64,000 nt of DNA from an uncultured Elusimicrobia bacterium (GCA_964510095.1 CAZEAE010000001.1:232551-296550), one strand, 5' to 3'. Positions 3,819 through 64,000 are shown, numbered from the stretch's first letter. Made by a program: numbers and translations. Notes: a model not told the origin generated them from the letters alone.

Positions 3819-3904
3819 GCCCGATGTGAAGCGGATGATTCGCGCTGTCTGCGGTCCTTGACACGCCCGACCGGACCGGCTACAGTCATACCGTTCGGTA
3901 TGAA

Positions 3905-4420
3905 ATGATGAAAGAGAAAATGGACCGATTCGAGCTGTCGGTGCAGGAATGGCTGGGCACACCCTGGATACCCAGGCCCGTCAATCTATGCCTGGTGTTC
4001 CAGGTTAATTGCCCGGGTTGTTTCATCCTTTCCCTGCCTCAGCTCGAGCGGCTTCAGCGCGAGTGGGCGCCACGCGGCGTCGGATTCTTCGGCCTGTCCA
4101 CGGCCTTCGAAGACTTCGAGCTCAACGCGCCGGAACACACACACGGGCTTTTCCACAAAAGGAAGGTCGTCGGCGAGACCGCGAAGGCTCTGCTACGGGA
4201 GAACATCGACCCGGCCGCGCTCGAGATCAACTTCCCCGTCGGCATCGACCGGCGTTTACCCGACGGGCGAGGCGAGACCTTCGCCCGCCACAAACTGCCG
4301 GGTACGCCGACCTGGCTGATACTCGATGAAGAGCAACATATATTGACCGGCTGGTTTGGACACGAGGACGACGAGGCCGTAGCCCATCGCCTCGAGAGCT
4401 TGAGCCGCAAAGAAGACTAA
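3905..4420 (+). CDS. Thioredoxin-fold protein with a CPGC motif (redoxin / TlpA-like thiol-disulfide oxidoreductase)
   Basis: A CPGC dithiol motif near the N-terminus, with flanking sequence typical of the AhpC/TSA-redoxin fold. Confidence 0.45.
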   Translation: MMKEKMDRFELSVQEWLGTPWIPRPVNLCLVFQVNCPGCFILSLPQLERLQREWAPRGVGFFGLSTAFEDFELNAPEHTHGLFHKRKVVGETAKALLRENIDPAALEINFPVGIDRRLPDGRGETFARHKLPGTPTWLILDEEQHILTGWFGHEDDEAVAHRLESLSRKED

Positions 4421-4438
4421 GTATTGTAGAATCCGGGC

Positions 4439-5284
4439 ATGGCGCTTTTCTCCAAATCGCTCGCCCTGCTCCGGCTCGAGGCGGGATTCATGACGCCGTA
4501 CGCCTTCTACCACCGCAACGGCGGCCGCCACGTTTTCCCGTTCACCTTCGCCTACTACCTCAAGCTCGAGCGCGGCCAGCACCTGCCCCGGCCCGAGTGG
4601 CTGCCGATCCTGCTGAGCCTCCTGCGCATCCCTCCCAGCGACGCGCTGTACCAGCGCTTCGTCACCGACTACCTGCGCGATCATTTCGGCACCGAGGAGA
4701 ACTATCAATCTCTGCTCGCCCCGCTGCTGATCCCGAAGCACGATAAGAACGACAAGCAGCAGGCGACCAAACGCCTGCTCAGCGAGCAGGCCTACCACAT
4801 CACCCCGGCGCAGTATAAAACCATCGTCGGCGACGCCGCGACCTACTGGGCTTTCGAGTGCCTGGTCAACGATCGCGGCGTCTTCAGCTCCGCCGAACTG
4901 TCCGACATCACCGGGCTGCCAAAGGCCGCGCTCGAGGCGGGGCTTAAAAAACTCGCCGCGCAGAAGCTCGTCCGCCGCGCGTCGGCCGGAAAATTCAAAA
5001 GCCCCTTAGCCGGCAAGTTCTACATGTTCCCCAAAACCTTCCCGGGAATCGAGGCCTACCGGAAAAAGCTCGCCAAGCTCATCGCGGAGATGGTCGCCCG
5101 CCGGGGCGCCATCACGCACGAGTCGGGCGTCATGATCCGCGCCGAGGAGGGCTCCGTGCTGCGCTCGATCGCCGCCATGCGCGACGCGCTCGAGGCCTCG
5201 ACGGCCTACTCCGTGTACGAGAGGGCAGAAGGCAGCGGCGTCTTCCTCCTGCAGATCCGCGCGCGCAAAGTCTTCGACTTCTAA
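4439..5284 (+). CDS. Hypothetical protein
   Basis: A 281-aa ORF with coding-like composition and no recognisable domain. Confidence 0.4.
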   Translation: MALFSKSLALLRLEAGFMTPYAFYHRNGGRHVFPFTFAYYLKLERGQHLPRPEWLPILLSLLRIPPSDALYQRFVTDYLRDHFGTEENYQSLLAPLLIPKHDKNDKQQATKRLLSEQAYHITPAQYKTIVGDAATYWAFECLVNDRGVFSSAELSDITGLPKAALEAGLKKLAAQKLVRRASAGKFKSPLAGKFYMFPKTFPGIEAYRKKLAKLIAEMVARRGAITHESGVMIRAEEGSVLRSIAAMRDALEASTAYSVYERAEGSGVFLLQIRARKVFDF

Positions 5285-5495
5285 GCACCGCCAGCACAGC
5301 CTTCCGTGCGGCATCCTGATCCACACGCGCTGATTACTCGCGGTGAACTAAAACCGCGCCATTACCGCTTCATCCCGAATAGACCCATTGCCGCCCGGCT
5401 GGTTCCCCTCCGCCTCAGGCCCGCACGCCCGCACGTCACTATACTATGGGGGACCGTGCTCGATGAGATACTCGCTTTCCTACAAGGAGCTTAAC

Positions 5496-8255: not shown

Positions 8256-11200
8256 CGGATGATCGAAAGCCTCTTGATGATGCTCTTCTGCCCGGGCGAG
8301 GCGATCACGGCGAAATAGCCGCCCGTGGCCAATTCCCGCCCATCCTCGTTGCGCGCGTTCCACTGCAGCCGGCCGCCGCTGTTGGCCGAGCTGAACTGGG
8401 CGGCCAGCTTCCCGCTGACCGTGAAGACCTTGATCGTGACGGCCGCCGGCAGGTTGTCGAAGACGATGCCCGAGTTCACGTTGCCCGGCGAGAAGGGACG
8501 GCCCTCATCGGGGTTGACGCCGTTGGGCTTGAAGGGCACCGGATAGACGCGCACGGTGTCCAGGTTGGCGGCGCCGGCCAGCGGGAAGGCGGCGAAGAAG
8601 CTGAAGTGGCGCGTCGCCCCGTAGACCGTGTGGTTGACCAGGTCGATCGTCGTCGTCAGGTCGGCCGTCCACTGGTTGGTCACGGTATCGAAGCTGTAGA
8701 GCTTAAGATCCTGAGCGCGCAGCGAGGTGCCGTCCAAGATGCCGTCGTCGTTGGCGTCGAGGTAGGTGAAGGTCAGGGTGGCCGAATTGCCGCCGGAGAG
8801 CAGCGTCTGGCCGTTGCCCAAGGTGATGCTCATCGAGATGCCGACGTCCTGCGTGCCCTCCGGGGCCGCGGCCGGCAGGACCGGGGAGTTGACGACCGAG
8901 ACCGTCGTCGAGGAGCCGCTCAAAGAGCCCGCCGGCAGGTCGATCTTCGTGACCAAGGAGCCGACGCCGGCTCCCGTGATCGCTTGCGGCGCACCGTTGT
9001 TGAGCACCTCCTCGCGCGTGATCAAGCTTCCCACCAGGCGCTCGCGCACGTCCCACCCCGCGGGGTCGACGACGACGGTCACCACCCCCGGCGTCGTATC
9101 GGAGGAATCAGAGATGTCGGCAGCCACCGCGCGCAGGTCATAGCTGGTGGCCGTCAAGCCGGTGACGTCCCAGTGCAGGAACCAAGGGGCCGACAGGTCG
9201 CCGTTGGTCTGCGTCGGCCCGGCCGGCACGACCGGGAGCCAGGCCGTGTCGCTGGATGCCTTGTATTGGAAAAGCACGCTCTTGGTCTGCGCATCCGTGC
9301 CGCTGAGCAGCTGCGCCGACACCGTGACGCGGTCGCCGGCGATGCGCTTTCCTGAGACGGGGGACTTGATCTGGGCCCGCACCGCCGACACCGACGCCGT
9401 CGATGATGCCGAGGCGTAGACGCCGGAGGTTTCTTCCACGCCGCAACGGTGCGCCGCCCGCAATGCGAAGAGATAGGTGGGGCTAGAGACCAGCACGCCG
9501 GTCGTATATGAGGTCTCAGTGGAGGTGAAGACCGCCGCCGGCGTGACGAAGTCGACCGCGCCCGTGCCCGCGTCGTAATACAGCTTATAGGCGGTGATGC
9601 CTTCCGTAGGTGAAGCCGTCCATGACAGGGAGATGCGGTTGCCGGTCAGCGCGTTGGCCGCCAAGCCGCTGGGCGCCGAAGGCGTCGAGGCCAGGGTCAC
9701 GAAGGAGACCGTGCCGTCGAAAGCGGTGGCCACCGCGTCTCCATTGCGGTTGCGCACGCGCAGGTAATACGTCGTGCAGCCCAAGAGGCCCGTGTCGGCG
9801 TAGGCGACCACCGAGCTCAAAGACACCAAGGAGAAGGCGGCATTGTCGGTGGAATGCTGGACCTCGGCCAGCGTGTCCGCGGGGTTGGTGTTGAGGCTCC
9901 AGGAGATCGTCGCGCTGGTGCCCTGGACCAGGCTGATGACGCTGCCCGTAGGCGGCGCGGCTAGGGTATAAGCCGTCGCGGCCGCAGACAGCGGCCCTTG
10001 CCCGCTGACGTTGATGCCCGCGACGACCAAGCCGTAGGCGGTGTTGGTGGCCAGGCCCAGGTGCGAGAACGCCGCCGCCGCCGGATTGCCGATGATCGAC
10101 GCCGTGTTCGAAGCGGGGAAGACGTAGTAGCCGACGGCATCGGCCGCCGCGCCCCAAGTCCAAGAGATCGACGAGACGCCCAGGGCCGCGCCGACGGGCA
10201 CGCCCGGCTGGCCGGGGGCCGCCGGCTCCGTCCGGGTGCTGACGGTCGCGTCGAAGGTCGTGACGCCGCCGTTGTGGCCGAGCGTGCGCGCTTTGAAGTA
10301 ATAGGTGGTCGACGGCGACAGCCCCGCAGCCTCGGCGTCGGTCACGGAGACCAGCGTCTTGACGGGCGACGCGAACGCGGCGGAGACGTCGCGCCAGAGC
10401 TCGTAGACCGTGCCGGGGTCGGGGTTGCCCTGCGGCAGCCAGTCGAGCGAGACGGTCGAAGACGTCACGCTCAGGACCTCCGTCGCCGACGGAGAGAAGG
10501 CGGGGCTAGCCGCCGAGCCCAGATCCTTCACGGTGCTGGCGTTGGCCCCGCTGCGGGCCCGGACGCGGAAATAATAAGTCGTGTTGGCCAGCAGGTCGGC
10601 TCCGGCTCCGCCCGCGCCGAAGACCACTGAGAGGTTCAGCGTCGACGAGCTGAAGTTCACGGAGGCGAAAGCGTCGCTGGAAAGGTCGGCCTCGTAGCCG
10701 GTGCCCGGCGGGTTGCCGCCATCGGTCCACGAGACGGTGACGCTGGCAAAATCGACGGCGACCAGGCTGGGCGCGCCGGCGCCGGGCTCGGCGAGCAGCG
10801 TCGTCGTGGAAGGCAGCGTCGTCAATGATGTGAGCCGGCCGCCGTGGCCCAGGGCCCGGACCTGGAAGTAGTAGGTGGTGTTGGCGCTCAGGCCGGCGAA
10901 GGCCGCCGAGACGCCGTAGGTGCCGCTCGAGGCGTTCAAGGTCGAGAACTCGTCGGTGGAGACCCGCGCCTCGTAAAGCGTGCCCGAAGCGTTGCCATTG
11001 GCAGTCCAGTTCGCGGTGACCGCCGCCGGGCCGACGAAGGTCGGCGCCAAGGCCGCGGGCTCGGCCGGCAAGGTGGCAGTGGCGACGACGGCCACGAACG
11101 CCGTGGGCATCGAGGCGGCGTTGAAGGCCTGCACCCGCAAATAGTAAGTGGCGTTGGACTGCAGGGCGAAGAAGGTGGCTGAAGTCAGGAGCGTATTGCT

Positions 11201-49718: not shown

Positions 49719-50432
49719 ATGGACCTGGTCAAGATCCACAAGGACCTGCTGGCGGCCTTGAAGCCCCTGACCTTCCGGCCCCCCGTCGCCGTCGTCTACA
49801 ACCCGCTGACCTACGCCTGGCGGCCCTTCGAGCAGTACCTCAAGCGCTACGGCACGGGCCATAAGGAAGTCGTCCTCTTAGGAATGAACCCCGGCCCCTG
49901 GGGCATGGCGCAGACCGGCGTCCCTTTCGGCGAGGTGGGGATCGTCCGCCATTGGCTCAAGATCGACGGCCGCATCACCCGCCCCGCCGTCGAGCACCCC
50001 AAGCGCCCCATCCAAGGGTTTGCCTGCCCGCGCAGCGAGGTCAGCGGCGCCCGGCTTTGGGGCTGGGCGCGCGACACCTTCCATACGCCGCAGCGCTTCT
50101 TCTCCAGGTTCTTCGTCGCCAACTACTGCCCGCTGGCTTTCATGGAAGAAAGCGGCCGCAACCTCACCCCGGACAAGCTGCCCGCCGCCGAGCGCGCCTT
50201 GGTGGAAGCTGCTTGCGACCAGGCCCTGCAGCGCCTGGTCCACTACTGGAGGCCGCGCCACGTCATCGGCGTCGGCGCCTTCGCCGCCCAGCGGGCGCAG
50301 GGCGCGTTAAAAGGGTTCGACCTGACGGTAGGCACCGTCCTGCATCCCAGCCCCGCCAGCCCCGCGGCCAACCGCGGCTGGGCCAAGGCCGCCCAGGCCC
50401 AGCTGCTCAAACAGAACATCCGCCTGCCCTAG
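49719..50432 (+). CDS. Single-strand-selective monofunctional uracil-DNA glycosylase (SMUG1 family)
   Basis: GMNPGPWGMAQTGVPFG matches the SMUG1 family signature. Confidence 0.75.
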   Translation: MDLVKIHKDLLAALKPLTFRPPVAVVYNPLTYAWRPFEQYLKRYGTGHKEVVLLGMNPGPWGMAQTGVPFGEVGIVRHWLKIDGRITRPAVEHPKRPIQGFACPRSEVSGARLWGWARDTFHTPQRFFSRFFVANYCPLAFMEESGRNLTPDKLPAAERALVEAACDQALQRLVHYWRPRHVIGVGAFAAQRAQGALKGFDLTVGTVLHPSPASPAANRGWAKAAQAQLLKQNIRLP

Positions 50433-50504
50433 GCGCGCAGTCTCCTCGTAAAGGGAACCAAATCGGCACCTCAATCGTATAAGAGTAGAGGCTTTTTCTG
50501 GGCC

Positions 50505-50533
50505 TTGCGTGATAGCTATTTAATAGCTATATT
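50505..50533 (+). promoter_or_regulatory. Sigma70-type promoter (TTGCGT-N17-TATATT) with an embedded 19-bp palindromic operator (ATAGCTATTTAATAGCTAT)
   Basis: -35 at 50505..50510 and -10 at 50528..50533. The perfect palindrome at 50512..50530 sits in an AT-rich patch 50 nt upstream of the brnA-like start. Confidence 0.5.
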
Positions 50534-50581
50534 AAATGAAACTACTCCAAGACGACGCGACGGCGCAGTGAAGGAGGCTTT

Positions 50582-50839
50582 ATGCGGCAAGCACGCAAAC
50601 CCAAGCGTAAGAGCAAGGAAGCGTTCGATCCCATCCTCCACGAGTTCGAGACGAAAGACCTTGCCGAAGACATCATCCGAAGCGGCGTCGCCGTCGTCAT
50701 CCGCCCCAAACAGATGGCGACCTCCATCTTGCTGCCCCCCGCCATCATCGAGAAGCTCAAGGTCAAAGCCGCCAAGCGCGGGATCGGCTACCAGACCATG
50801 CTCAAGATCATCGTACACGAACACGTCGACGATTATTAA
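50582..50839 (+). CDS. BrnA-like (CopG/RHH-related) antitoxin-family protein
   Basis: An RBS (GAAGGAGG) lies 5 nt upstream. The C-terminus ILLPPAIIEKLKVKAAKRGIGYQTMLKIIVHEHVD matches the BrnA consensus (LP..L...K..A...G..YQ.L.K..L...V). Confidence 0.5.
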   Translation: MRQARKPKRKSKEAFDPILHEFETKDLAEDIIRSGVAVVIRPKQMATSILLPPAIIEKLKVKAAKRGIGYQTMLKIIVHEHVDDY

Positions 50840-50915
50840 GGTAGGCCTTTAGCCTGCCTCCTGACTAGGTCCAAATCCCCTGGGAGCGGGCGGCCGCCCA
50901 GGCTATAATCCTTTC

Positions 50916-52910
50916 ATGAGCCTTCGCCGCGCATTGGCCGCCCTGCTGACCCTGTGCCTGCCGTCCTTGGCACTGGCCGTCCAGCTCTCGGTCAAACCCA
51001 CCATCGTACCGCTGGCGCTTCCCAGCGCCGCAATAGGCGCCGCGCCCACGCTTTCGCTGACGCCACGGCTTCTTAGCCTCACTCCGACGCTGGCCGCCCC
51101 CTCCCTGATACCGGCGCCCGCGCTGGCGCCCGCTCCCGCCGTCACCGTGGAAGCCTCGCTCCAGGACTTCGGCGCCCAGCTGGCGCCGCTGGCCCAAGGC
51201 GAAGCCCACACCGCCGCCCTGTCGCAGACGCTCGGCGGCTTCTTCGACGGCTCAGCGGCCCTGCCCGAGGCGTCGGTCCCCGCCGAGGCCTCGCCGGTCC
51301 AGAAGCGGGCGCTGTCTTCGATCAAGCAGCTCAAGGTCGGCACCTACAACGTGCTCAACCTCTTCAACAGCGTCGGCAAGCATGAGCCCGACCCAGCCAA
51401 CCCCGGCAAGCTCAAGCAGGTCACTCCCGCCGCGCCCAAGGATGACGCGGCCCTGCGCGGCGAAGGCAAGGCCATCTTGGAAAGCGACCTCGACCTCGTC
51501 GTCCTGCAGGAAGTGGAAGATATTCAGGCCTTGAACGACTTCAATAATCGCCACCTCGATGGCCGCTACCGCACCTTCCTCATCGAGGGCAACGACGAGC
51601 GCGGCATCGACGTCGCCTTCCTGGTGAAGAAGGACCTCCCCTTCGACGTCGAATATCGTACGCACAAGGATGACGCATGGGTCGATCCCATCCTCGGCGG
51701 TCCGCCCAGACCCTTGTTCTCGCGCGACCTGCCGCAGATGATCGTGCGCGCCGAAGGCTCGGCCAAGCCCCTCTTCATCGTCTTCGGCACCCACTTCAAG
51801 AGCAAGCGCGACCGCCCCGGCGACCCCGAGTCGCGCATCGTGGCCAAGGCCCAGGCCGAGCGCGCCGCCCAGGTCATCGAAGAGGCCCGCAAGGAGTTCG
51901 GCGCGGACGTCCCCTTGATGCTGGCCGGCGACTTCAACGGCGACGTCAACAAGGACGACACCTTCGACGCCCTCTGGAAGCAGGCCAAGCTCCTCAACAG
52001 CCTCGACCTGCGCCAACCGCCCGTGCCGCTCTCGGAGCGGGTCACGCACACCTATCACCCGCGCGAAGGCCCCGCCCACATGGCCCAGATGGACGCAGTC
52101 GCGGTCTCCGGGAGCCTCAAGGCTCTGGTGCAGGACGCCGAGATCTACCGCTACCGCGGCGAAGACGGCAAGACCAAGGCCATCCCGAAGACCTACGAAG
52201 AGCGCAGCAGGAACCCTTCCGACCACTTCCCGCTCTTCATCACGCTGGACTTCCAGCCGCTGGTGCGCCGCGCCCAGCCGGCCGCTATGGCCGACGTCGC
52301 GCCCGCCCTGAGCCTCCAGACCGAGGTCCTCTCCTCCGTCGGCCGCGAACTGGGCCTGGGGATGCTCGAGGTCTCGATGCTGATGGCCGCCTCCTCCAAA
52401 GGCCCCACGCTGGGAGACTGGGTACGCCTTGAGCGCCGCTTTTCGAAGCTCGAAGCCACCCGCGAGGAGATCTGGGCCGCCGCCGCCCAAGCGGTCAGTT
52501 CGACCGGCATCAAGCGCAAGCTCGCCCAAGGACAACGCACCGACCAGAGAGACTTCTTCCGGCTCGCTGAAACCGTCAAGCAAGCCGACCAGGAGCTGAT
52601 CATCGTGCGCAACAACCGCTTCCTGAACTGGCGTCAGGCTTGGGCTGCCGGAGACCGGCGCGCCGCGGAGGTCTCCTTCGAAGCCGCTTCGGCCGAGTTG
52701 GAGGGCGAAGAGCTGCACATGCTCATCGGCCGCCTCGGGGCCGGAGCGGACGCCCAGGCGCTGCGCGTGACGCTCTCCTTGAGCGTCGGCGGCTCGTCGG
52801 CGGTGCGCAAGCTTTTAGACAGCCTGTCGGCTTCGCCGTCGCTGACGCCCGCCCATCGCGCCCAGCTCGGCAAGCTGGCCGCCCGCCTCCAAACCCTAGG
52901 CGTCCTCTAA
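50916..52910 (+). CDS. Secreted endonuclease/exonuclease/phosphatase (EEP) family protein with a long C-terminal helical extension
   Basis: Signal peptide and Pro/Ala/Leu-rich linker. The EEP motifs are VGTYNVLNLF, DLVVLQEVED, GIDVAFLV and SDHFPLFITL. Confidence 0.65.
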   Translation: MSLRRALAALLTLCLPSLALAVQLSVKPTIVPLALPSAAIGAAPTLSLTPRLLSLTPTLAAPSLIPAPALAPAPAVTVEASLQDFGAQLAPLAQGEAHTAALSQTLGGFFDGSAALPEASVPAEASPVQKRALSSIKQLKVGTYNVLNLFNSVGKHEPDPANPGKLKQVTPAAPKDDAALRGEGKAILESDLDLVVLQEVEDIQALNDFNNRHLDGRYRTFLIEGNDERGIDVAFLVKKDLPFDVEYRTHKDDAWVDPILGGPPRPLFSRDLPQMIVRAEGSAKPLFIVFGTHFKSKRDRPGDPESRIVAKAQAERAAQVIEEARKEFGADVPLMLAGDFNGDVNKDDTFDALWKQAKLLNSLDLRQPPVPLSERVTHTYHPREGPAHMAQMDAVAVSGSLKALVQDAEIYRYRGEDGKTKAIPKTYEERSRNPSDHFPLFITLDFQPLVRRAQPAAMADVAPALSLQTEVLSSVGRELGLGMLEVSMLMAASSKGPTLGDWVRLERRFSKLEATREEIWAAAAQAVSSTGIKRKLAQGQRTDQRDFFRLAETVKQADQELIIVRNNRFLNWRQAWAAGDRRAAEVSFEAASAELEGEELHMLIGRLGAGADAQALRVTLSLSVGGSSAVRKLLDSLSASPSLTPAHRAQLGKLAARLQTLGVL

Positions 52911-55980: not shown

Positions 55981-56820
55981 CTACTGGTAGAAGTAGAGCC
56001 CGGCGCCGAACTTGTAGTCCTCGAAGGGCTCGGTCAGGGGCTCGATGACGGTACCGATCATGACCTTGCCCTGGCTGACGAGATACTCGGCGCGCTCCTT
56101 GACCTTCTTCTCGATCTCTTCGCGCGTCTTGCCGATGCGGCTGACGTAGCCGACCTCGCGGCCGAAGTAGACCATCATCCACTTCTCGGGCGTCTGCAGG
56201 ATATCGAGGCCCGCCCTCCTGAGCAGCTCGAAATCGATGTCGTCGCCGGGCTTGAGCACGCGCACCTGCGACTCGTCTTCCGTCCGCGCCTGAGGCTTGA
56301 CCAGGTAATAGACGTTGTAGGTCGGCAGGAGGAACTCGAGGTCGAGCACGTAGGAGGTCAGCACGCTCACCTGCCGCTGGGCCAGCGCGGACAGGACCAT
56401 GGCGCGGTTGTCGCGCAAAGAGGCGTCGTCCTTGGGCTTGAACTGCCGGGGCTCGGCCCTGAAATCGCGGATCACGGAGCCGTCGGCGGTCTTGTAGGGG
56501 ATCGTGTAGAAGCCGCTCTTGAAGGTGGCCTTGCCGGGCGTGATGCCGGCGCCGGAGAGTATTGCCGACCACAAGGCCACGGCTTCTTCGAACTGGGCGT
56601 CGGTGTCGGCGTAGCCGAAGAGGACTTCCTTGCCGCTCTGGGCGAGGAGGTAGCCCTTGCTCAGGCGGTCCTGCGGCGCGCCCAAGACGGAAGGCGCGGC
56701 GGCGGCGCTTTGGACCTGGCGCAGGCCGAGGTCTGAGAAGGGGATCGAGCCAAGGGTCTGCGCGGCCTGGGCCGAGGCGCAGAGAGAGGCGAGCACAAGG
56801 GAGGTCAAGAGGGTTTTCAT
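55981..56820 (-). CDS. Hypothetical secreted protein
   Basis: Signal peptide (ASAQAAQ); 279 aa; ATGA overlap with tag upstream. Confidence 0.5.
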   Translation of the reverse strand: MKTLLTSLVLASLCASAQAAQTLGSIPFSDLGLRQVQSAAAAPSVLGAPQDRLSKGYLLAQSGKEVLFGYADTDAQFEEAVALWSAILSGAGITPGKATFKSGFYTIPYKTADGSVIRDFRAEPRQFKPKDDASLRDNRAMVLSALAQRQVSVLTSYVLDLEFLLPTYNVYYLVKPQARTEDESQVRVLKPGDDIDFELLRRAGLDILQTPEKWMMVYFGREVGYVSRIGKTREEIEKKVKERAEYLVSQGKVMIGTVIEPLTEPFEDYKFGAGLYFYQ

Positions 56821-57329
56821 GTGGCCATTCTAACATGTTTATGGCATTTCGGTTCATGGTCTTGGACCAGCCCGCAGGCCTGCTGGAAGGCGTAGCAGAT
56901 CGTGGGCCCCACGAACTTAAAACCCCGCGAGAGCAGGTCCCGGCTCAAGCCCGGAGCCTTGCCGGCGAAACGCCAGAGGTAGGCGTCGAAGCTGCCGAAC
57001 TCGGCCTGGACCTTGAGGAAGGCCTTGGCGTTGACGACCGCCGAGCGCACCTTGAGCCGGTTGCGCACGATGCCTTCATCCTTCAGTATCATGCGGATCT
57101 TGCGCTCATCGAAGCGCGCCACCTTCCTGGGGTCGAAGCCGGCGAAGGCCTTGCGGTAGTTCTCGCGCTTCCTCAGGATGGTCAGCCAGGACAGGCCGGC
57201 CTGCGCGCCCTCCAGGATCAGGAACTCGAAGAGCCTGCGGTCGTCATGGACGGGCACGCCCCACTCCCGGTCATGATAGAGGACGTAGAGCGGGTCGTCG
57301 GTGACCCAGGCGCAGCGGCGTTTTTCCAT
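56817..57329 (-). CDS. tag: DNA-3-methyladenine glycosylase I
   Basis: CAWVTDDPLYVLYHDREWGVP...FLILEGAQAGLSWLTIL... and the Cys/His zinc site are typical of Tag. Confidence 0.8.
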   Translation of the reverse strand: MEKRRCAWVTDDPLYVLYHDREWGVPVHDDRRLFEFLILEGAQAGLSWLTILRKRENYRKAFAGFDPRKVARFDERKIRMILKDEGIVRNRLKVRSAVVNAKAFLKVQAEFGSFDAYLWRFAGKAPGLSRDLLSRGFKFVGPTICYAFQQACGLVQDHEPKCHKHVRMAT

Positions 57330-57437
57330 GGCGATAAAACGGCGGAGAGGGTTGGACGCTGTTCGAAACCGAAAGTCTCACTGACGGATCGGTTTCGAAT
57401 CGAAGTTAAGCGCAGCCCCTCCGGTAAAAAGCTTATA

Positions 57438-57483
57438 GCCTTAGCGCCAACGAAACGGCGCTGAGGCTATTTTATTGCTTTTA
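57438..57483 (+). terminator. Hairpin (13-bp imperfect inverted repeat TAGCCTTAGCGCC/GGCGCTGAGGCTA) followed by TTTTATTGCTTTT. Terminator-like, or part of an attachment site
   Basis: A stem-loop plus a T-run, read directly from the sequence, lying 40 bp upstream of the integrase start. Confidence 0.3.
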
Positions 57484-57523
57484 GCCGGGATTACAAGGGA
57501 CTCGCCACTTCGGGGAGCGTCCT

Positions 57524-59110
57524 ATGTTGCCTACGCCTATGTCCGAGGAGTTTGAATCCGTTATTAGAGGATACCGTCATCCCAGGACCGGGGAGCCGCT
57601 GAGCCCCGGAACCCGAGAAAAATATTTAGCGAACCTTCGGCTCTTTCGGGATGGAGTACTGAGCCTCTATCCCGGTCGGAAGTTCGAAGTCCTCGCCGAC
57701 TTCCTGCCGCAGGACTTGAAGGACTATAAGGGCCGTCTTGAGAGCGATAGCGGAAACATGAAGGGGATCACCATAGCGACCCGGCTCATGTGCTTGCGCG
57801 GATTCTTCAAGACGGCGTATGCCTTGAACGCCATCCCGCATGACATCATTGACGGCTTCAAGGTTCGTTGGCCGCGCTCGGAGGAACAGTACCGCCGCCT
57901 TCAACCCGAGGAGGTCGAGCGGCTTTGCTCGATTGATGAAAAGAAGCTCGCCCGCATGAACCTACGGGAGAAGTTCATCCATCTTCGAAATCGAACGATG
58001 GCCGCAGTTCAGAAAGACGCAGCCCTTCGCGCCAGCGAGGTTGTCCGCATCAGCGAGGCCGATATCCTTTGGGAAAGGCGGAGCGACGGCGGGCATGTCC
58101 CCCTCATCGTCCGCGAATCCAAGGCGCGCGTCCGAGGACACCAGGACACGACATACCTGAGCCCGTGGGGCGTGAAGCATCTCAAGCGTTACTTCGAAGC
58201 GCGCAGCGCCTATTTGGAGTCGCGGGAATTAACCCCCGGCCAAATCATCACGCCCAAGTCCAAGCAAGCGGTCGGCCCGGCCTTATTTGTTTCGCAGTTC
58301 GGCGAACCGATGACGACTCCTACGACATACCAGGATGTCATCTTCCCCGACCTCGTGAAACGGGCCGGACTGAACCAGGCGTACACGTCGCACTACCTGA
58401 GGCATACTCGAATTACTGAGTGGGTCGAATCGGGGATGGACCCGAAGCGCGTACAGAAGCTCGCGCGCCACACGGACGTTACGATGACGCTGCACTATTA
58501 TCACTTCAACGAAAAGGAACTTGTCGCCGATCTGGACAAGCGTTCCGGCGTCACCGAGCCGACGGGCGACTTTACGCATCAACTGACGCCCGAGCAGCCG
58601 GTACGTCTCGCGCTCTACCGCCACGCCCTCGCTGACGCGGGCCGGACGCCGGATGAGCCGACCCTGGAACGTCTCGACTCCACCCTTCAAGGGAACATGA
58701 AGGCAGAGGCGTTTGCTCAGGTCTATTACACCGTCCATGAAACGTGCGCCAAGCTCAAAATACAGAGGACGCAGCTTTACGTCGGCTGGATCAAGGCCGG
58801 GCATTTGCATCCGTTCAAGGAAGGCGCGCGCACCGTATTCCTCAGGACCGAGGTTGACGCCCTGGCGTCTCTTCGGACGACCGAGGAAGCGTCTCGGGCT
58901 CTCGGATACAGTGAGAAGGTTCCCGTCACCGTTGCACACATGGCCGCGCAAGGGGTACTTAAAGGAACCAAGATCGGGCGATGCTGGCGCTTCCACGACC
59001 GCGACCTGATCGAATACCTGATCGCCAAGCGGCTTGGACGCCTACGGCTCCAACAGGCGCACCGCCGCCGCACGACGCGCCCGGCCTCGCTGCAAGTCGG
59101 GATGATATGA
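57524..59110 (+). CDS. int: Tyrosine-type site-specific recombinase/integrase with two C-terminal excisionase-like (MerR/HTH_17-type) HTH domains
   Basis: Catalytic-core residues (R...HYLRHTRITEW...LHYYHF). The two C-terminal helix-turn-helix segments are TCAKLKIQRTQLYVGWIKAGHLHPF and ASRALGYSEKVPVTVAHMAAQGVLKGTKIGRCWRF. Confidence 0.75.
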   Translation: MLPTPMSEEFESVIRGYRHPRTGEPLSPGTREKYLANLRLFRDGVLSLYPGRKFEVLADFLPQDLKDYKGRLESDSGNMKGITIATRLMCLRGFFKTAYALNAIPHDIIDGFKVRWPRSEEQYRRLQPEEVERLCSIDEKKLARMNLREKFIHLRNRTMAAVQKDAALRASEVVRISEADILWERRSDGGHVPLIVRESKARVRGHQDTTYLSPWGVKHLKRYFEARSAYLESRELTPGQIITPKSKQAVGPALFVSQFGEPMTTPTTYQDVIFPDLVKRAGLNQAYTSHYLRHTRITEWVESGMDPKRVQKLARHTDVTMTLHYYHFNEKELVADLDKRSGVTEPTGDFTHQLTPEQPVRLALYRHALADAGRTPDEPTLERLDSTLQGNMKAEAFAQVYYTVHETCAKLKIQRTQLYVGWIKAGHLHPFKEGARTVFLRTEVDALASLRTTEEASRALGYSEKVPVTVAHMAAQGVLKGTKIGRCWRFHDRDLIEYLIAKRLGRLRLQQAHRRRTTRPASLQVGMI

Positions 59111-59354
59111 GCGGATACGTCCAAATGCTTTACCAACCGAACAGCCGGAGGAAATTATCGGTTTCTCGACGAGAGCATACCAGGGGAACTGTCGAGCTTC
59201 TCACAGGGGTCTAAGTGGATTTAAGGCGCTTTAAGACACTTTAAGCGCGTAACGGCACAAGCGACCGAACAACAAAATCGGGGCCAGCCGAACGGGAACA
59301 GGTGGCTTCAATAACGAAGGCCCATGTCGAATTTCAAGGTATGTGTTTGGCCAT

Positions 59355-60173
59355 TTAGGGCGCGGCTGATTGAGCATAAGTCGGCGCAATAAGACGCACG
59401 TCAAAGTCTGCTGAGTGCTGGCCTATTTTAACGGCGTCCCATTGGGCTACGTCCATCCACGCCAGGAAATTGACTGGCTTGAGCGTTTTATTCCCGAGGT
59501 TAACCTCGAAAGTCCCGGTCAGCGGGTCCATTCCATCCCATTGGTAGGAATAGGAGACCTCATAAACCTCGCCCTCGCCTCGGATGGCCGTCCATTTAAG
59601 GTGGGAGGTTTCGATAAACTGTTTAAGCTTGTCCCCCATCTTGCGCGTATTGTTCCACTCTACATAGAGGTCGCCTATTGCGGGATTCTTCATGGTAGGG
59701 ACGATAAGGCTTGTGACAATTACGGCGCTGCCCACCGTGCAGCCGGGACGATTATGGTCGGCACATTTTGTTTTTCTGACCGTTGGGAACTGCTGGACAA
59801 AAGCGACAGCCTCGCTCCCTTGCGGCTTTGAGGGAGTTACTAGATATACCCCGCGAGCAATCGCGACCATTACACCCGCCGCTATTAACAATGTGGACCA
59901 TAAGGGCTTACGACTTTTTTCCACTTGCGGAGCCGCCACCGCGCTTTGCGGCTCCGGAGCTGTGGCCGGTTTGGGGGGCGGAGGCGGTAAGGGCGCTGCT
60001 TTGATAAAGAGGCCGCGCAGGGCGTCAAAGGTTTTGGCGGCTCGCCATTGATCGGTGCTTGAAGCCCCCTCCGGCGCGACAACTGTCTCCGGTCCAAAAC
60101 CTGGAACCGCTTTTAGTTGTTCAACCGCGTAAGGCCCCTGCGCCTGCTTGCCATCGAAAATCCAATATTTCAT
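59355..60173 (-). CDS. Hypothetical membrane-anchored protein with an N-terminal DUF4339/GYF-like segment
   Basis: MKYWIFDGKQAQGPYAVEQL resembles DUF4339; one TM helix (LWSTLLIAAGVMVAIA). Confidence 0.45.
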   Translation of the reverse strand: MKYWIFDGKQAQGPYAVEQLKAVPGFGPETVVAPEGASSTDQWRAAKTFDALRGLFIKAAPLPPPPPKPATAPEPQSAVAAPQVEKSRKPLWSTLLIAAGVMVAIARGVYLVTPSKPQGSEAVAFVQQFPTVRKTKCADHNRPGCTVGSAVIVTSLIVPTMKNPAIGDLYVEWNNTRKMGDKLKQFIETSHLKWTAIRGEGEVYEVSYSYQWDGMDPLTGTFEVNLGNKTLKPVNFLAWMDVAQWDAVKIGQHSADFDVRLIAPTYAQSAAP

Positions 60174-61102
60174 GGGAGGATATTCCCTGTGCTTTGTTTT
60201 TTCTCTTTTGTGATAGCTTGGAAGCGGGCATTGTCGCGCAGCGAATTAAATTCCCACGCGCGGTGGGCTTTCCCCGCAAACGTCTTATCCATTCGCACCG
60301 CTTCCTCAAGCGACTCTAAGGCCTGATCGTCCGATCCCGCCATAGCCAGATAAATCGCATGGGTATACCGTCCCTGCGCTGACGGGTCGGTGCTGTCTCG
60401 CTGCTTATTCGTGGGCCAGTCCGTGGGCCGCAGATTCCGGCCCCCCGCTTGAATTTTATGAAGCATGGCGGCGATCTTACGGCTGATTTCGCGGGCTCCG
60501 CGATATGTCGCACCAGAAGACGCGGACCAGAGGAGCCCATATGTAGTTGTTTGGAGCGATGCCCGGACCTCCCCCGTTCTCAGGTCAATCATCCTCGCGC
60601 TTGTCTCCACTGGATATGGAAGTAGCCCGAGAGTAATGACGGATAGAAGGCTGATATTTTCGCTTGTTTCGAGCATAATCCCGTGGGTGGCGGCTGGTTG
60701 ATATTCATTGATGTCGGTCGCCGTGGTGTGGACACCTGACAACTTGGCTTGATTGAGCCTGTCCTTGATGACGGCGGACTCAGCATCATCAACGACAGTG
60801 ATATTGCGCTTGAGGAGTTCACCTTCCATTGATGCGCGGATTCTTCTTTCGTTGGTCAAGGGGACCAATTCCCCGTCCCGGCGGCGCATGAATTTTGACG
60901 TATCCGCGTGAATTTCCAAGATGGCCACGCGCATCTTGTCGTAAGGAGGATGATCGTGGGCACAAGAACTCAAGAGAGTGGCGGATAGCAGGAGATAAAG
61001 AGCACCGCCCGGATTAACTTTTTTTATTTGCCAAGTCCATCGACAAAGATCAGGCGCTTGGAGGGCACCACGCACATTTTCCCGGGCGCACTTCTGGATC
61101 AC
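60170..61102 (-). CDS. Hypothetical lipoprotein with C-terminal TPR-like helices
   Basis: Lipobox LLSSC. The start is uncertain; it overlaps its neighbours by 4 nt at both ends. Confidence 0.4.
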   Translation of the reverse strand: MIQKCARENVRGALQAPDLCRWTWQIKKVNPGGALYLLLSATLLSSCAHDHPPYDKMRVAILEIHADTSKFMRRRDGELVPLTNERRIRASMEGELLKRNITVVDDAESAVIKDRLNQAKLSGVHTTATDINEYQPAATHGIMLETSENISLLSVITLGLLPYPVETSARMIDLRTGEVRASLQTTTYGLLWSASSGATYRGAREISRKIAAMLHKIQAGGRNLRPTDWPTNKQRDSTDPSAQGRYTHAIYLAMAGSDDQALESLEEAVRMDKTFAGKAHRAWEFNSLRDNARFQAITKEKKQSTGNILP

Positions 61103-61677
61103 CGCAGAAAATCCATCAACTTTTCTAACCAGCGCTGCCCCGCAGACTTCTGAGCGGCGGTTTCATTCGATGCCTTCGTCCCCTGTGCTTTCTGAAAACC
61201 GGCGGTTTCCGATACCAGTTCAGATTCTAGCGCGAAGAGCGGAATGCCCAATCCTCGCTCCTTATAATCGTAACGCATGTTTGCCCATTCACATTCGATA
61301 TACCTTGCGTCATAGTATCCGATGGTATCATCAGTGCGAAGCTTGCCGCTGACTTGAATAGTTTTAAGCTGCATTTTGCCGATGGGGCCAATATCTCCGT
61401 ACAGCGTAACCTGAGATCCCTTCTTCATGTTGTACAGCCCAATCGCCAGGCACATGCTTTGCATGGAGCCGCCCTGATTCTTGACCTGGACATTGAGAAT
61501 TATTTCCGAGACGCCATCCATATCCACCTTGTTTCGAGCGACATCATCGACTTTTACTACTCCATAGGACTGCTCCCGGCCTTTAGTTCCGTTGATGGCA
61601 GTCAGTTTGTCAGCAAAGATAATCGTTGCTGAGGCATGGGACGGCAATAGAAGCCCGATCAAGAACAGCATATTCAT
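61099..61677 (-). CDS. Hypothetical secreted protein
   Basis: Signal peptide MNMLFLIGLLLPSHASA; the start is placed at an internal Met of the listed ORF. Confidence 0.4.
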   Translation of the reverse strand: MNMLFLIGLLLPSHASATIIFADKLTAINGTKGREQSYGVVKVDDVARNKVDMDGVSEIILNVQVKNQGGSMQSMCLAIGLYNMKKGSQVTLYGDIGPIGKMQLKTIQVSGKLRTDDTIGYYDARYIECEWANMRYDYKERGLGIPLFALESELVSETAGFQKAQGTKASNETAAQKSAGQRWLEKLMDFLR

Positions 61678-61741
61678 AGTTATTCCCTCCAATTTATTTG
61701 CTCCTGTTTCGGGAGCAAACATCATACAAAGTTAGGCTTGC

Positions 61742-61993
61742 TTGCCCAGAAGGCAAGCAATGGCAACAATACGGAAATCCTCCTTTCACAGCGCAGCCTA
61801 TCGTCGCTTCCGTCGGAGGCTTCGGGACGCGCGGGTCGAGAACAAACTGACCCAACGGCAGGTCGCCAAGAAGCTCGAAAAACCGCCCAGCTATGTCGCC
61901 AAGATTGAGACCGGTGAGCGGCGGGTTGACTTCATTGAGTTGCAGGTCCTTGCAGCGCTCTACAAAAAACCCCTGAGCTTCTTCCAAGACTGA
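61742..61993 (+). CDS. XRE-family helix-turn-helix transcriptional regulator
   Basis: LTQRQVAKKLEKPPSYVAKIETGERRVDFIELQVLAALYKKPLSFF is a canonical HTH_XRE with a C-terminal tail. Confidence 0.6.
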   Translation: MPRRQAMATIRKSSFHSAAYRRFRRRLRDARVENKLTQRQVAKKLEKPPSYVAKIETGERRVDFIELQVLAALYKKPLSFFQD

Positions 61994-62013
61994 ACATAGC
62001 CGGTCTTGTTTTT

Positions 62014-63513
62014 TCAAAGACTCCTCAGGTGCTTCAACAGCGCGACCATGCCGAGCGTATCCTGCCCACAATGCTGCCGCAAGTCATCCGATATTTTCTG
62101 CCGTTCTTGGTCCAAGAGCCCCACGTCATTCATCAACGTCCAGTAGGCGAGCTGCGCCTGTGGGCCATCTTGAATCGCGAAATTCTTGTAGGTCATCTCG
62201 GGCACGAGCGCGGGTAGGACCGTCTTGAGCGACCAACTCCCACCAAAGGCCGGATGAACATAGAGTGCCCCCCGGAAGGGCTCTCCTATGTCCCACAAGC
62301 GCTCTGTGACCGAGTGGAGAAAGTTGTATTTGGCCGAGAACTCTACGGCCAGGCTTTTCAGGCAATCCCTTTTAAAGACCTTATTATCAACAACGACAGA
62401 ACCTTCCGGGCCGATATGTTTTCTGAGGAAGTTAACGAGGCCCAACCTGGGATCGCTCTTTCCGTCGCCCAGGTATTCGAAATGCGAGGTCGGCCAACCG
62501 TCTTGCTCTTGAATACGGATAGACGCTTGAAAGGCCACAAATTCAAACGGCCTTAAGCCGTCATACGGCGGAATCGGGAGGCTGATCGTCTCGAAATCGA
62601 GGAAGTAGAGCGGATATTTTAAGCCCTGCAAACTCTCGTCGATGGCTTCCCGGTCAATGTGGGGCTCGCCGGTCTTGGCGACTTTGACCTGGATTCGTTG
62701 GGACGGGGTCAGGTCAAAGTCGTCCGGGATATCGCGCATGAGCGTGACTCCGCGACTTTTCAAAAAGCTTCTTTCCAGTATGGGGAAGCGGTTTAGCTCA
62801 TGAGTCGAACTGGTAGGAACGGTCTTCCAGCATGAAGATTTGAACCCGCATTCAGAGGGGTAGTTGCAGCGTTCGCCGACTTCGGCCTCCGGCATTCCTT
62901 CAGAAGCGACGATGTCCTGCATCTCTCGGATTTGCCGTTTGATGCCCTGGCGCAGCATAAATTCGTCGCCGGTTGCTTCAGTCACGTTTTTAAGGGTGAA
63001 AAATTTATGCGCGTCGATATCGCCTCTGCGCACATATGAACTGGCGATGTTCAGGAGATAAGCCTGTCGGATCGGGAAACCCGCACCATGTAGGACATGG
63101 CGCTGGCTGGCGATATCGTAAAGGAAACTTTTGTCGTTGCCCATTGAGGCTTTGGCCTCGATCAAATCCCATTCCCCCGCATCAGTCCGAATCAAAACAT
63201 TGGCGCGGACAAGCAGGCCGTTAAAGAGCGCCGCCGGTTCGAAAAGGACACGGGCTCCGCTCTGAATAGCGGCCTGAGTCGCCTTGTGCGCTTCGGGGAT
63301 ATTCCCGTCATCTTCCGCGATCAAGACGCCGCCAGGGAAGCGCTTACGGGCGAGTTGAACTGCCTCGCGGCCTTGCTCGGAATAAATTTTTTGACGGGGC
63401 GAGGCTTTCGATATCAGGAGGCGGCGATGGCGATAAAGCCAAAGCGCTTTAGGGCATTGAACCCCGCGCAGATATTCGGCCTTGGACAAAATACCCGGAG
63501 TGCTGGCGATCAT
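62014..63513 (-). CDS. DUF2779-like protein: an N-terminal PD-(D/E)xK (RecB/Cas4-like) nuclease region plus a C-terminal RNase-H-like/DEDD exonuclease-like region
   Basis: N-terminus LSKAEYLRGVQCPKALWLY. A mid-region D/E-K pattern (DLIEAK). The C-terminal segment YFLDFETISLPIPPY is RNase-H-fold-like. Confidence 0.5.
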   Translation of the reverse strand: MIASTPGILSKAEYLRGVQCPKALWLYRHRRLLISKASPRQKIYSEQGREAVQLARKRFPGGVLIAEDDGNIPEAHKATQAAIQSGARVLFEPAALFNGLLVRANVLIRTDAGEWDLIEAKASMGNDKSFLYDIASQRHVLHGAGFPIRQAYLLNIASSYVRRGDIDAHKFFTLKNVTEATGDEFMLRQGIKRQIREMQDIVASEGMPEAEVGERCNYPSECGFKSSCWKTVPTSSTHELNRFPILERSFLKSRGVTLMRDIPDDFDLTPSQRIQVKVAKTGEPHIDREAIDESLQGLKYPLYFLDFETISLPIPPYDGLRPFEFVAFQASIRIQEQDGWPTSHFEYLGDGKSDPRLGLVNFLRKHIGPEGSVVVDNKVFKRDCLKSLAVEFSAKYNFLHSVTERLWDIGEPFRGALYVHPAFGGSWSLKTVLPALVPEMTYKNFAIQDGPQAQLAYWTLMNDVGLLDQERQKISDDLRQHCGQDTLGMVALLKHLRSL

Positions 63514-63536
63514 GGCGCTATCTGCCCACCGCCTTT

Positions 63537-63851
63537 TCAGGCGGTGGCGCGGGTCGCGGCCAGCGCGGCGAGGCGCGGACTATTCTTGAAACGGAATTTC
63601 CGCAGCCAGGCAAAATATCCCGGCGTCCCCCTCCGGTTTTTTGTCTTGAGGACGCGGCTCTGATTCCTGTTGATCTGCTTCAGTTCCGAAAGCTGCCGCT
63701 CCTGCTCGTCGATCTGCCGCTCCTGGTCGGCAAGTAGAATTTGCGCGAACAGGGTTTTCCGGCGCGCGTCGAGAACTTTGCCGCACAAATCGGCGACCGT
63801 ATCTATGTAGCTGTCCCAGGATACCTGATAAGACGAATCTTTTAGGCCCAT
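63537..63851 (-). CDS. Hypothetical coiled-coil protein
   Basis: A 104-aa ORF in the lower-GC region with a charged, heptad-like middle (QERQIDEQERQLSELKQ). Confidence 0.3.
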   Translation of the reverse strand: MGLKDSSYQVSWDSYIDTVADLCGKVLDARRKTLFAQILLADQERQIDEQERQLSELKQINRNQSRVLKTKNRRGTPGYFAWLRKFRFKNSPRLAALAATRATA

Positions 63852-64000
63852 ATACTCCTCCGGTATTGGCCCCGTTATCCGTCCATAAAAAAATCAGGCG
63901 GACACAGATACCCCAAGCCATTGCAATAGCCAGGAAAATCCGCGCCGCCCTTTCCCCGTGCCGAAGCACAGGTACATACCATCAGGCGACCGATTCCTCG

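Follow-up and report, generated by a model that had tools for sequence, protein, structure and literature searches.

Near the end of a 64,000-nucleotide (nt) stretch of DNA from an uncultured Elusimicrobia bacterium (GCA_964510095.1, CAZEAE010000001.1:232551-296550; the whole of this stretch is called the window below), an integrase gene is followed by a run of genes lower in guanine plus cytosine (GC) than the 57 kb that precede them. The question raised by this locus is what that low-GC tract is, where it begins and ends, and by which enzyme it was put in place. The original prediction, made from the sequence of the window, took positions 59101-64000 for compositionally foreign cargo downstream of the integrase, consistent with a recently integrated island and possibly a defence or accessory module. 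The analysis reported here indicates that the tract very probably forms the interior of an integrative element of 9,394 bp, inserted site-specifically into a tRNA-Ser(UGA) gene at its 3' end and extending from window position 57342 to about 2.7 kb beyond the window end.

Base composition and the two ends of the element

The base composition and codon usage of the element are distinct from those of its host. Over 59101-64000 the GC content is 0.539, against 0.666 for the host part of the window (1-57341), the latter agreeing with the predicted value of about 67%; host windows of 4.9 kb have a mean GC of 0.668, with a standard deviation (sd) of 0.013 and a minimum of 0.628, which places the tract about 10 sd lower, and in 2-kb windows the remaining 56 kb stays within 0.62-0.70. 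In a 500-nt profile GC falls from 0.648 (56500-56999) to 0.560 (57250-57749) and then to about 0.53-0.55 from 59.2 kb, remaining at 0.47-0.59 from the step through the window end; the low values run on for about 4.5 kb past that end, where they climb from 0.55 to 0.68-0.71 within about 500 nt. The sharp drop lasting to the window end is therefore as predicted, and the profile, which had been named as a check, is a step rather than a gradual change. The depth and the starting point of the drop have to be corrected: the overall GC is 53.9% and not about 50%, a value of 0.47-0.51 being reached only locally at 61.0-62.0 kb, and the step lies near 57.3 kb, about 1.8 kb upstream of the proposed start at 59101. 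Codon usage, the other part of the same check, separates the two sets of genes cleanly, GC at third codon positions (GC3) being 0.84-0.93 in 14 flanking host genes and 0.575-0.73 in 10 element genes, with no overlap. As a whole the element has a GC of 0.553 between flanks of 0.666 and 0.672; the value is 0.595 for the integrase and 0.49-0.56 for the cargo.

No tRNA or other Rfam feature lies within the 64-kb window. The right boundary, which the prediction had suggested seeking by extending the sequence, is marked by a tRNA-Ser(UGA) gene about 2.7 kb beyond the end of the window (L004 19213-19300, minus strand; ARAGORN, and Rfam tRNA at 59.7 bits). Here and below, coordinates beyond the window are given on the 73.5-kb ENA contig L004, from Hainich groundwater, on which a position equals the window position minus 47523. 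The features of the two junctions, including the attachment (att) sites, are as follows.

57336..57356, no strand: attL, a 21-nt imperfect direct repeat AAAACGGCGGAGAGGGTTGGA, matching the tRNA-Ser 3' end region at attR in 18 of 21 positions
57352..57370, plus strand: inner arm (P' arm) TTGGACGCTGTTCGAAACC, just inside the left junction
57435..57470, plus strand: terminator-like hairpin predicted by a consensus scan, with a 14-bp stem and then a T run, between attL and the integrase
L004 19190-19208, outside the window: P arm, just inside the right junction, an inverted repeat of TTGGACGCTGTTCGAAACC in 18 of 19 positions

The two junctions share an identical 11-nt core, GCGGAGAGGGT on the plus strand, which constitutes the last 11 nt of the tRNA-Ser. 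In the extended sequence it occurs exactly twice, in the tRNA (L004 19213-19223) and at window 57342-57352, the second copy sitting 12 nt upstream of the start codon of tag (57329). For the arm pair as for the 21-nt repeat, 0 matches are expected by chance and none appeared in 100 shuffles; there is no internal copy of the core or the arms inside the element, and a single att-like repeat pair bounds the segment from 57342 to the tRNA. Joining the ends of the element gives a reconstructed attP consisting of an arm, a 14-nt core region and an arm (about 52 bp; ...GGTTTCGAAAAGCGTCCAAATCAGCGGAGAGGGTTGGACGCTGTTCGAAACC...), while joining the outer flanks gives a tRNA-Ser gene running straight into the upstream region of tag, the reconstructed attB (...GGCGATAAAACGGCGGAGAGGGTGGGATTCGAACCCAC...). 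The left end is fixed to the nucleotide by a JGI/ENA contig (L099) whose integrase is 93% identical but whose upstream genes are unrelated to those of the window and whose host flank has a GC of 0.707, because nucleotide homology to it (92.5%) begins at 57343, the second base of the core, and continues through the integrase to 59271. An integrated island, with the tRNA-Ser 3' end at both junctions, inverted-repeat arms inside them, an integrase at the edge and the same module in another genome, is thus what the prediction had rightly seen. It had described a foreign tract downstream of the integrase, and the tract is there, but the integrase does not lie outside it: the element starts at 57342 and includes it.

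It is extremely improbable that the junctions are the work of assembly or binning and the tract a chimera of two organisms. The genome is indeed a metagenome-assembled genome, and two Logan contigs end inside the tRNA, 15 nt past the core, but the left junction is identical in four independent assemblies (ENA L004, NCBI L001 and two from Logan, with 100% identity to the window over the overlap) and the right junction in two contigs, the 73.5-kb L004 and the 144.6-kb GCA_038068815.1 (L001); matching att repeats at the junctions, moreover, are not something that a chimera produces. The two Logan assemblies, which are independent, break at the same base (position 1 of L002 and of L003), which is consistent with a graph branch at the att site, due either to alternative junctions or to repeated tRNA sequence in the community.

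Two further repeats were considered and set aside. A 16-nt inverted repeat (15/16; 59111-59126 and 60892-60907) had been a candidate for the borders of an invertible segment, but chance alone would yield about 0.8 pairs of this kind in 12 kb; a 40-nt repeat of 70% identity between the tRNA upstream region and the interior of the element was also treated as chance.

Two recombinases and one attachment site

The element has two recombinase genes, one at either end, which together with the right-end genes and the non-coding stretches beside them make up the following list.

57524..59110, plus strand: tyrosine integrase, 528 amino acids (aa), with two C-terminal HTH_17 (excisionase-like) domains; Pfam and PHROG matches
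59111..59354, no strand: intergenic region in which the nucleotide homology to L099 stops, at 59271, the start of the variable cargo slot
From 63852 to beyond the window end, no strand: non-coding region of 543 nt between a 104-aa open reading frame (ORF) and the helix-turn-helix (HTH) genes
L004 16872-17078, beyond the window: 68-aa ORF
L004 17105-17344, beyond the window: HTH_17 excisionase-like protein, 79 aa; PHROG, Pfam and NCBIfam matches
L004 17632-19281, on the strand opposite to tRNA-Ser: large serine recombinase, 549 aa, with Resolvase, Recombinase and Zn_ribbon_recom domains; PHROG_95 integrase, 3.5e-96

The integrase gene begins 172 nt inside attL and is transcribed inward from the left end. 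Its product matches Pfam Phage_integrase at 3.6e-19 (69.6 bits, cutoff 27.1), HTH_17 at 1.1e-14 and the PHROG_1 integrase at 1.1e-27, and its homologues, which form 17 clusters, all have the same architecture of Phage_integrase plus HTH_17. The serine recombinase is intact as well, with all three of its Pfam domains, and its frame passes through the att site and through the tRNA, which is on the other strand, giving a tail that reads '...VGFEPT...'. Neither recombinase has relatives in IMG/VR. In the integrated state the last 20 or so residues of the serine recombinase are the antisense of the tRNA (L004 19190-19281); in the circular form the protein would acquire a different tail of about 38 residues (window 57342-57464), ending in the hairpin at 57435-57470, which would then directly follow its gene.

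The tyrosine integrase is the more plausible acting enzyme because the substrate is a tRNA 3' end, because the arm and core stand beside the integrase in L099 and in a more distant relative, L102, and because a serine recombinase is missing near the integrase of another relative, L101. Tyrosine integrases usually act on tRNA 3' ends at which attP and attB share an extended identity. The arm next to the integrase homologues is conserved in L099 and, with the core included, recurs with 2-3 mismatches in L102, whose integrase is only 49% identical; in L101 (integrase 55% identical) no serine recombinase occurs within 10 kb of the integrase. It could also be argued that the large serine recombinase inserted the element at the tRNA, the tyrosine recombinase serving for resolution or for HTH_17-based regulation; we consider this improbable, but it is to be taken seriously because the gene adjoins the site. 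In its favor, the gene for this intact recombinase ends at the right junction with its frame crossing the att site, and an attP of about 52 bp with 19-nt inverted arms is of the size typical of serine integrases. Serine integrases, however, need only a 2-bp crossover, whereas attL and attR share 18 of 21 nt, including the 11-nt core, at a tRNA 3' end, which is the usual signature of a tyrosine integrase; both L099 and the distant L102 have arm and core directly upstream of their tyrosine integrase, and this, like the state of L101, tells against the serine recombinase as well.

In L102 the region upstream of the integrase (9625-9856) has an 'arm + core' and a 'core + arm' site facing each other across about 165 nt; between them only the last 14 nt of the tRNA-Ser 3' end are kept and no tRNA is detected, and the paired sites may be a fossil of successive integrations. 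The 543-nt non-coding region of our element contains two 33-nt direct repeats (L004 16666-16698 and 16757-16789, about 190-310 nt past the window; 85% identical and 91 nt apart) that could be operator, iteron or origin-like sites.

The course of events that we propose starts from an Elusimicrobiota genome in which the tRNA-Ser(UGA) gene would have stood directly upstream of tag. Insertion at the 3' end of the tRNA-Ser duplicated the core and regenerated an intact tRNA at the right end, leaving the displaced 3' fragment of the tRNA beside tag. The tyrosine integrase at the left end would be the enzyme recombining at the tRNA, with the small HTH_17 proteins as its putative directionality factors, and the large serine recombinase at the right end would be a second backbone gene. 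Between the integrase and the gene for a DUF2779 protein there is a cargo slot, occupied here by an XRE regulator and a divergent operon whose three genes encode a secreted protein, a lipoprotein of putative outer-membrane type and a membrane protein with a single pass. The element is probably still mobile.

Several points weigh against this account. No empty site was found in any relative in searches with Tag and with the 279-aa protein encoded nearby: the Tag scan of genome contigs returned only homologues of 55-67% identity, from unrelated phyla, and the metagenome scan with the 279-aa protein a single match, at 37%; homologues of the latter at 56% and 49% identity show no synteny, and the 2.5-kb contig of a 78% relative ends inside tag. 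All contigs that carry the exact Tag protein also carry the island, and every copy of this very locus stems from a single groundwater system. The gene for the serine recombinase reaches up to the right junction and its frame runs through it, and an attP of about 52 bp with long inverted arms has the size expected for a serine integrase. Finally, the function of the envelope operon in the cargo slot rests solely on localisation signals, a moderate fold match (TM-scores of 0.3-0.5) and domain swapping.

The gene content also bears on the possibility that the tract is a degraded prophage or a phage satellite, for which the integrase and the excisionase-like and XRE repressor-like genes, typical of lysogeny modules, might speak. 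The PHROG scan, however, gave no capsid, tail, terminase, portal, primase or replication protein matches, the recombinases have no IMG/VR relatives as said above, and the DUF2779 protein finds no match in 50,697 phage records; we regard a phage origin as very unlikely and reject it. Nor did any element ORF match a relaxase, a coupling protein or a type IV secretion component in Pfam/NCBIfam, a search that covered protein families only.

The DUF2779 protein and the envelope operon

The remaining genes of the element that lie within the window are listed here.

59355..60173, minus strand: membrane protein, 272 aa, GYF_2/DUF4339-like (Pfam GYF_2 E 0.0045, below threshold)
60170..61102, minus strand: lipoprotein with lipobox LLSSC; start at GTG 61102 or GTG 61075
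61099..61677 (longest ORF to 61725), minus strand: secreted protein, 192 aa, with signal peptide MNMLFLIGLLLPSHASA; first of the three operon genes
61760..61993 (longest ORF from 61742), plus strand: XRE-family HTH regulator, 77 aa (Pfam HTH_3 6.5e-13)
62014..63513, minus strand: DUF2779 protein, 499 aa (Pfam DUF2779 3.8e-30, 105.2 bits against a gathering threshold of 23.3)
63537..63851, minus strand: coiled-coil-like ORF, 104 aa, with no family match; a C-terminal motif is shared with a 118-aa ORF in the related contig L090

The gene inventory of the prediction is borne out, the DUF4339-like membrane protein, the lipoprotein, the secreted protein, the XRE regulator and the large nuclease-like protein all being present, and so are the 4-nt overlaps, at 60170-60173 and, if the lipoprotein starts at GTG 61102, also at 61099-61102. 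The suggestion of a defence module fared less well: PADLOC recognises no known defence system in 59101-64000, where it gives only a Cas4 domain and generic HTH matches, and the nuclease is substituted at two catalytic positions. 'Accessory module' is the safer wording.

DUF2779 (PF11074) has been described as a solo Cas4-like PD-(D/E)XK nuclease fused to a DEDD 3'-5' exonuclease, and is uncharacterised (PMC13621843, PMC3985635). The island protein has this full-length architecture, with a Cas4-like PD-(D/E)XK domain and four conserved cysteines at the N-terminus (the PADLOC Cas4 model matches residues 18-231 at 7.5e-6) and a DEDD-type 3'-5' exonuclease domain at the C-terminus. Its catalytic residues were compared with those of seven homologues, six from plasmids and one from the related element L107 (45% identity). 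The alignments conserve the cysteines C20, C216, C222 and C228 (one homologue is without the first), as well as E119-x-K121, ExoI D306-x-E308 and ExoIII H481-x3-D485. The island protein, however, has N105 where 7/7 homologues have the motif II Asp and K381 where 7/7 have the ExoII Glu, and also D376 in place of a Tyr; the codons for the first two, AAT and AAA, would each need one transition to encode the consensus residue. Catalysis is probably reduced or lost in both domains, because Asn replaces the motif II Asp in the one and Lys replaces the ExoII Glu in the other.

Full-length homologues of 30-34% identity are found on 32 plasmids of several phyla, where genes for large ATPases, helicases, a PLD nuclease or a WYL regulator frequently lie beside them. 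Searched by sequence against the PDB, the island protein gave no meaningful match. In its architecture, its four Cys and its E-x-K, ExoI and ExoIII motifs the island protein is an ordinary member of PF11074, at 30-45% identity to plasmid and island homologues, but it differs from the plasmid homologues in having Asn and Lys at catalytic acids and in adjoining an XRE gene rather than large ATPase, helicase or WYL genes. On the unrelated plasmid pSR67 of Salinibacter ruber (L098) a DUF4339 (GYF_2) gene (206-757) lies 3 kb from a DUF2779 gene (3854-5446), so that the same pair of families occurs there and in the island; this may be a coincidence.

None of the three envelope proteins has a match in PADLOC, and the secreted protein is without a family match in Pfam, NCBIfam and PHROG as well. 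The C-terminus of the lipoprotein is a TPR end-of-group domain (NCBIfam TPR_END_plus, 2.5e-9), and its family is tiny, with 16 matches in 1.84 billion representatives, of which about 8 cover the N-terminal domain and all of these have lipoprotein signals. An AlphaFold2 (AF2) model of the lipoprotein, with a mean predicted local distance difference test (pLDDT) of 73, gives Foldseek E values of 1e-5 to 1e-4 against CsgG (PDB, 1.5e-5), GNA1162, PelC, TolB-N and HpaA. Like the outer-membrane lipoproteins CsgG, PelC, GNA1162 and TolB-N it has a lipobox, and its alpha/beta N-terminal domain, from which these values come, may be of a similar fold, but the TM-scores are only 0.3-0.5, and it differs from them in its C-terminal TPR end domain, its tiny family and the absence of curli or Pel partner genes. 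The 272-aa protein, with only 4 homologues among 5.8 billion proteins, is laid out as a cytoplasmic GYF_2-like part (residues 1-58), a Pro-rich linker, one transmembrane (TM) helix and an extracytoplasmic C-terminal domain; its AF2 model has a pLDDT of 51.6 and is confident only at residues 1-55. A candidate identity as an anti-sigma factor (18.8 bits against a cutoff of 100) was disregarded, the match being to the Pro-rich and TM segment.

Comparison with related copies shows an operon of three exported proteins with a swappable external domain. L091, a Logan contig obtained from a different sample, is 99% identical at the integrase end and 90-94% identical in the secreted protein (90%) and the lipoprotein, but its third protein (P0003) agrees with the 272-aa protein only at residues 1-58 (93%), all that follows being unrelated; in P0004 the external domain of the GYF protein takes yet another, third form. 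L090 retains the lipoprotein and the GYF protein, at 82-89% identity, but has no genes for the secreted protein, XRE or DUF2779, and L101 carries a homologue of the C-terminal part of the lipoprotein.

The XRE gene is convergent with the DUF2779 gene and diverges from the envelope operon, with only a very short spacer between the two; because this is the usual arrangement of a repressor, we infer that the XRE protein would control the operon. As to what the operon does, the export signals, the putative outer-membrane-type fold of the lipoprotein and the domain swapping are the reasons for a guess, offered with low confidence, that it might alter or guard the cell envelope, excluding phages or other elements. 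Exchange of an external domain between near-identical elements is a pattern typical of conflict genes.

Relatives, neighbours and known types of element

Sequence beyond 59271 can be taken for exchangeable cargo because the homology to L099 ends there. The cargo that can be demonstrated by such comparisons to be variable is limited to about 59272-61993, because DUF2779 recurs in a distant member of the family, L107 (GCA_027406935.1, DAHZHS010000007.1), whose integrase is 51% identical and whose element has a GC of 0.466 in a host of 0.505. In L107 the integrase is followed by MmeI/Eco57I-type methyltransferase genes and genes for a T5orf172/ResIII (helicase) protein and a KAP NTPase, and these in turn by DUF2779 (45% identical), a small ORF and an HTH_17 protein, whose order and orientation agree with those in the 9,394-bp element. 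Directly upstream of the L107 integrase (9589-9972) there is a C-terminal fragment of a serine recombinase, matching residues 296-394 of ours (41% identical, E 5e-28); such a position beside the integrase is the adjacency expected across a circular junction. In L101 the genes are of the SNF2, HATPase_c_3 and radical-SAM-like types. By these comparisons the integrase family marks small elements in whose variable slot defence-type genes are often found, and it is suggestive, from two loci only, that DUF2779, the HTH_17 protein and the serine recombinase form the backbone of the element.

On the 5' side of the tRNA-Ser, outside both the 9.4-kb element and the window, lies an AbiEi/AbiEii cassette (L004 19364-21001, about 2.9-4.5 kb past the window end; GC 0.591). 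It resembles the AbiE type IV toxin-antitoxin/abortive infection systems in having both domains above the Pfam cutoff (AbiEii 104.7 bits, AbiEi_4 33.9 bits), and it is bracketed by 50-nt direct repeats of its own (45/50; L004 19364-19413 and 20952-21001). Each repeat contains a predicted promoter-like TTGATA-17-TATCCT on the minus strand; from one copy the AbiE genes would be transcribed, from the other the tRNA, and the cassette looks like a separate insertion that duplicated the promoter region of the tRNA.

With this cassette so near, the low-GC tract might be thought a composite of at least two elements (one with the tyrosine integrase, one with the serine recombinase, and the AbiE cassette) that had accumulated at a single tRNA hotspot, and the two recombinases at opposite ends, the AbiE cassette with its own repeats on the 5' side of the same tRNA, the GC of the integrase as against that of the cargo and the mosaic nature of related copies could all be cited for it. 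We think this unlikely, to about the same degree as insertion by the serine recombinase. A single att-like repeat pair bounds the segment from 57342 to the tRNA, with no core or arm copy within it, and L107 again has its serine-recombinase fragment beside a tyrosine integrase, which argues that the pair travels together.

Elsewhere in the window, between UDG and Exo_endo_phos genes, there is a local GC dip to 0.58-0.61 (50250-50999), with which an 85-aa ORF (about 50582-50839) having a weak CopG-antitoxin match coincides.

As a genomic island, a single element inserted at the tRNA-Ser is ordinary, a tRNA-integrated island of a little-known lineage, and nothing in it overturns current understanding. 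The sublocations within tRNA genes at which such insertions occur were reportedly classified by Williams in 2002. P4-type islands and VPI-2, the latter at a tRNA-Ser, are tRNA-targeting islands with tyrosine integrases (PMC3014918), and the present element is like them in having an inward-facing integrase at its edge, insertion at a tRNA 3' end with the tRNA regenerated and a partial 3' copy as direct repeat, a foreign composition and an excisionase-like HTH protein. It is unlike them in its crossover within the last 11 nt (the 3' strand of the acceptor stem), in an integrase situated at the end away from the intact tRNA and fused to two HTH_17 domains, and in the large serine recombinase at its tRNA-proximal end. 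Tycheposons are small cargo elements with a site-specific integrase at one end and tRNA targets that include Ser-tga (bioRxiv 10.1101/2020.12.28.424599). The present element shares with them the integrase that points inward from one of its ends, the tRNA target, a modular cargo slot (holding defence and niche genes in tycheposons) and the growth of an island beside a tRNA, but no primase, helicase, polymerase or replication hallmark genes were found in it and it comes from another host phylum and habitat.

Mobile elements of Elusimicrobiota and of similar uncultured groundwater lineages have hardly been described, and with att sites placed to the nucleotide and intact recombinases this one lends itself directly to testing, be it as a tool for integration or to mark gene flow. 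Finding DUF2779 on a defined mobile backbone, and next to defence cargo in a relative, gives that family a concrete context. We would suggest, tentatively, that these loci may belong to a family, as yet undescribed, of small integrative elements that target tRNA-Ser in Elusimicrobiota and in further bacteria of groundwater or sediment, in which a tyrosine integrase with two HTH domains is paired with a serine recombinase across the att site, with a backbone that includes DUF2779 and a slot that exchanges defence genes (restriction-modification-like, KAP NTPase, SNF2/HATPase) or envelope modules. If that were true, DUF2779 would be an element-maintenance or conflict gene and not random cargo.

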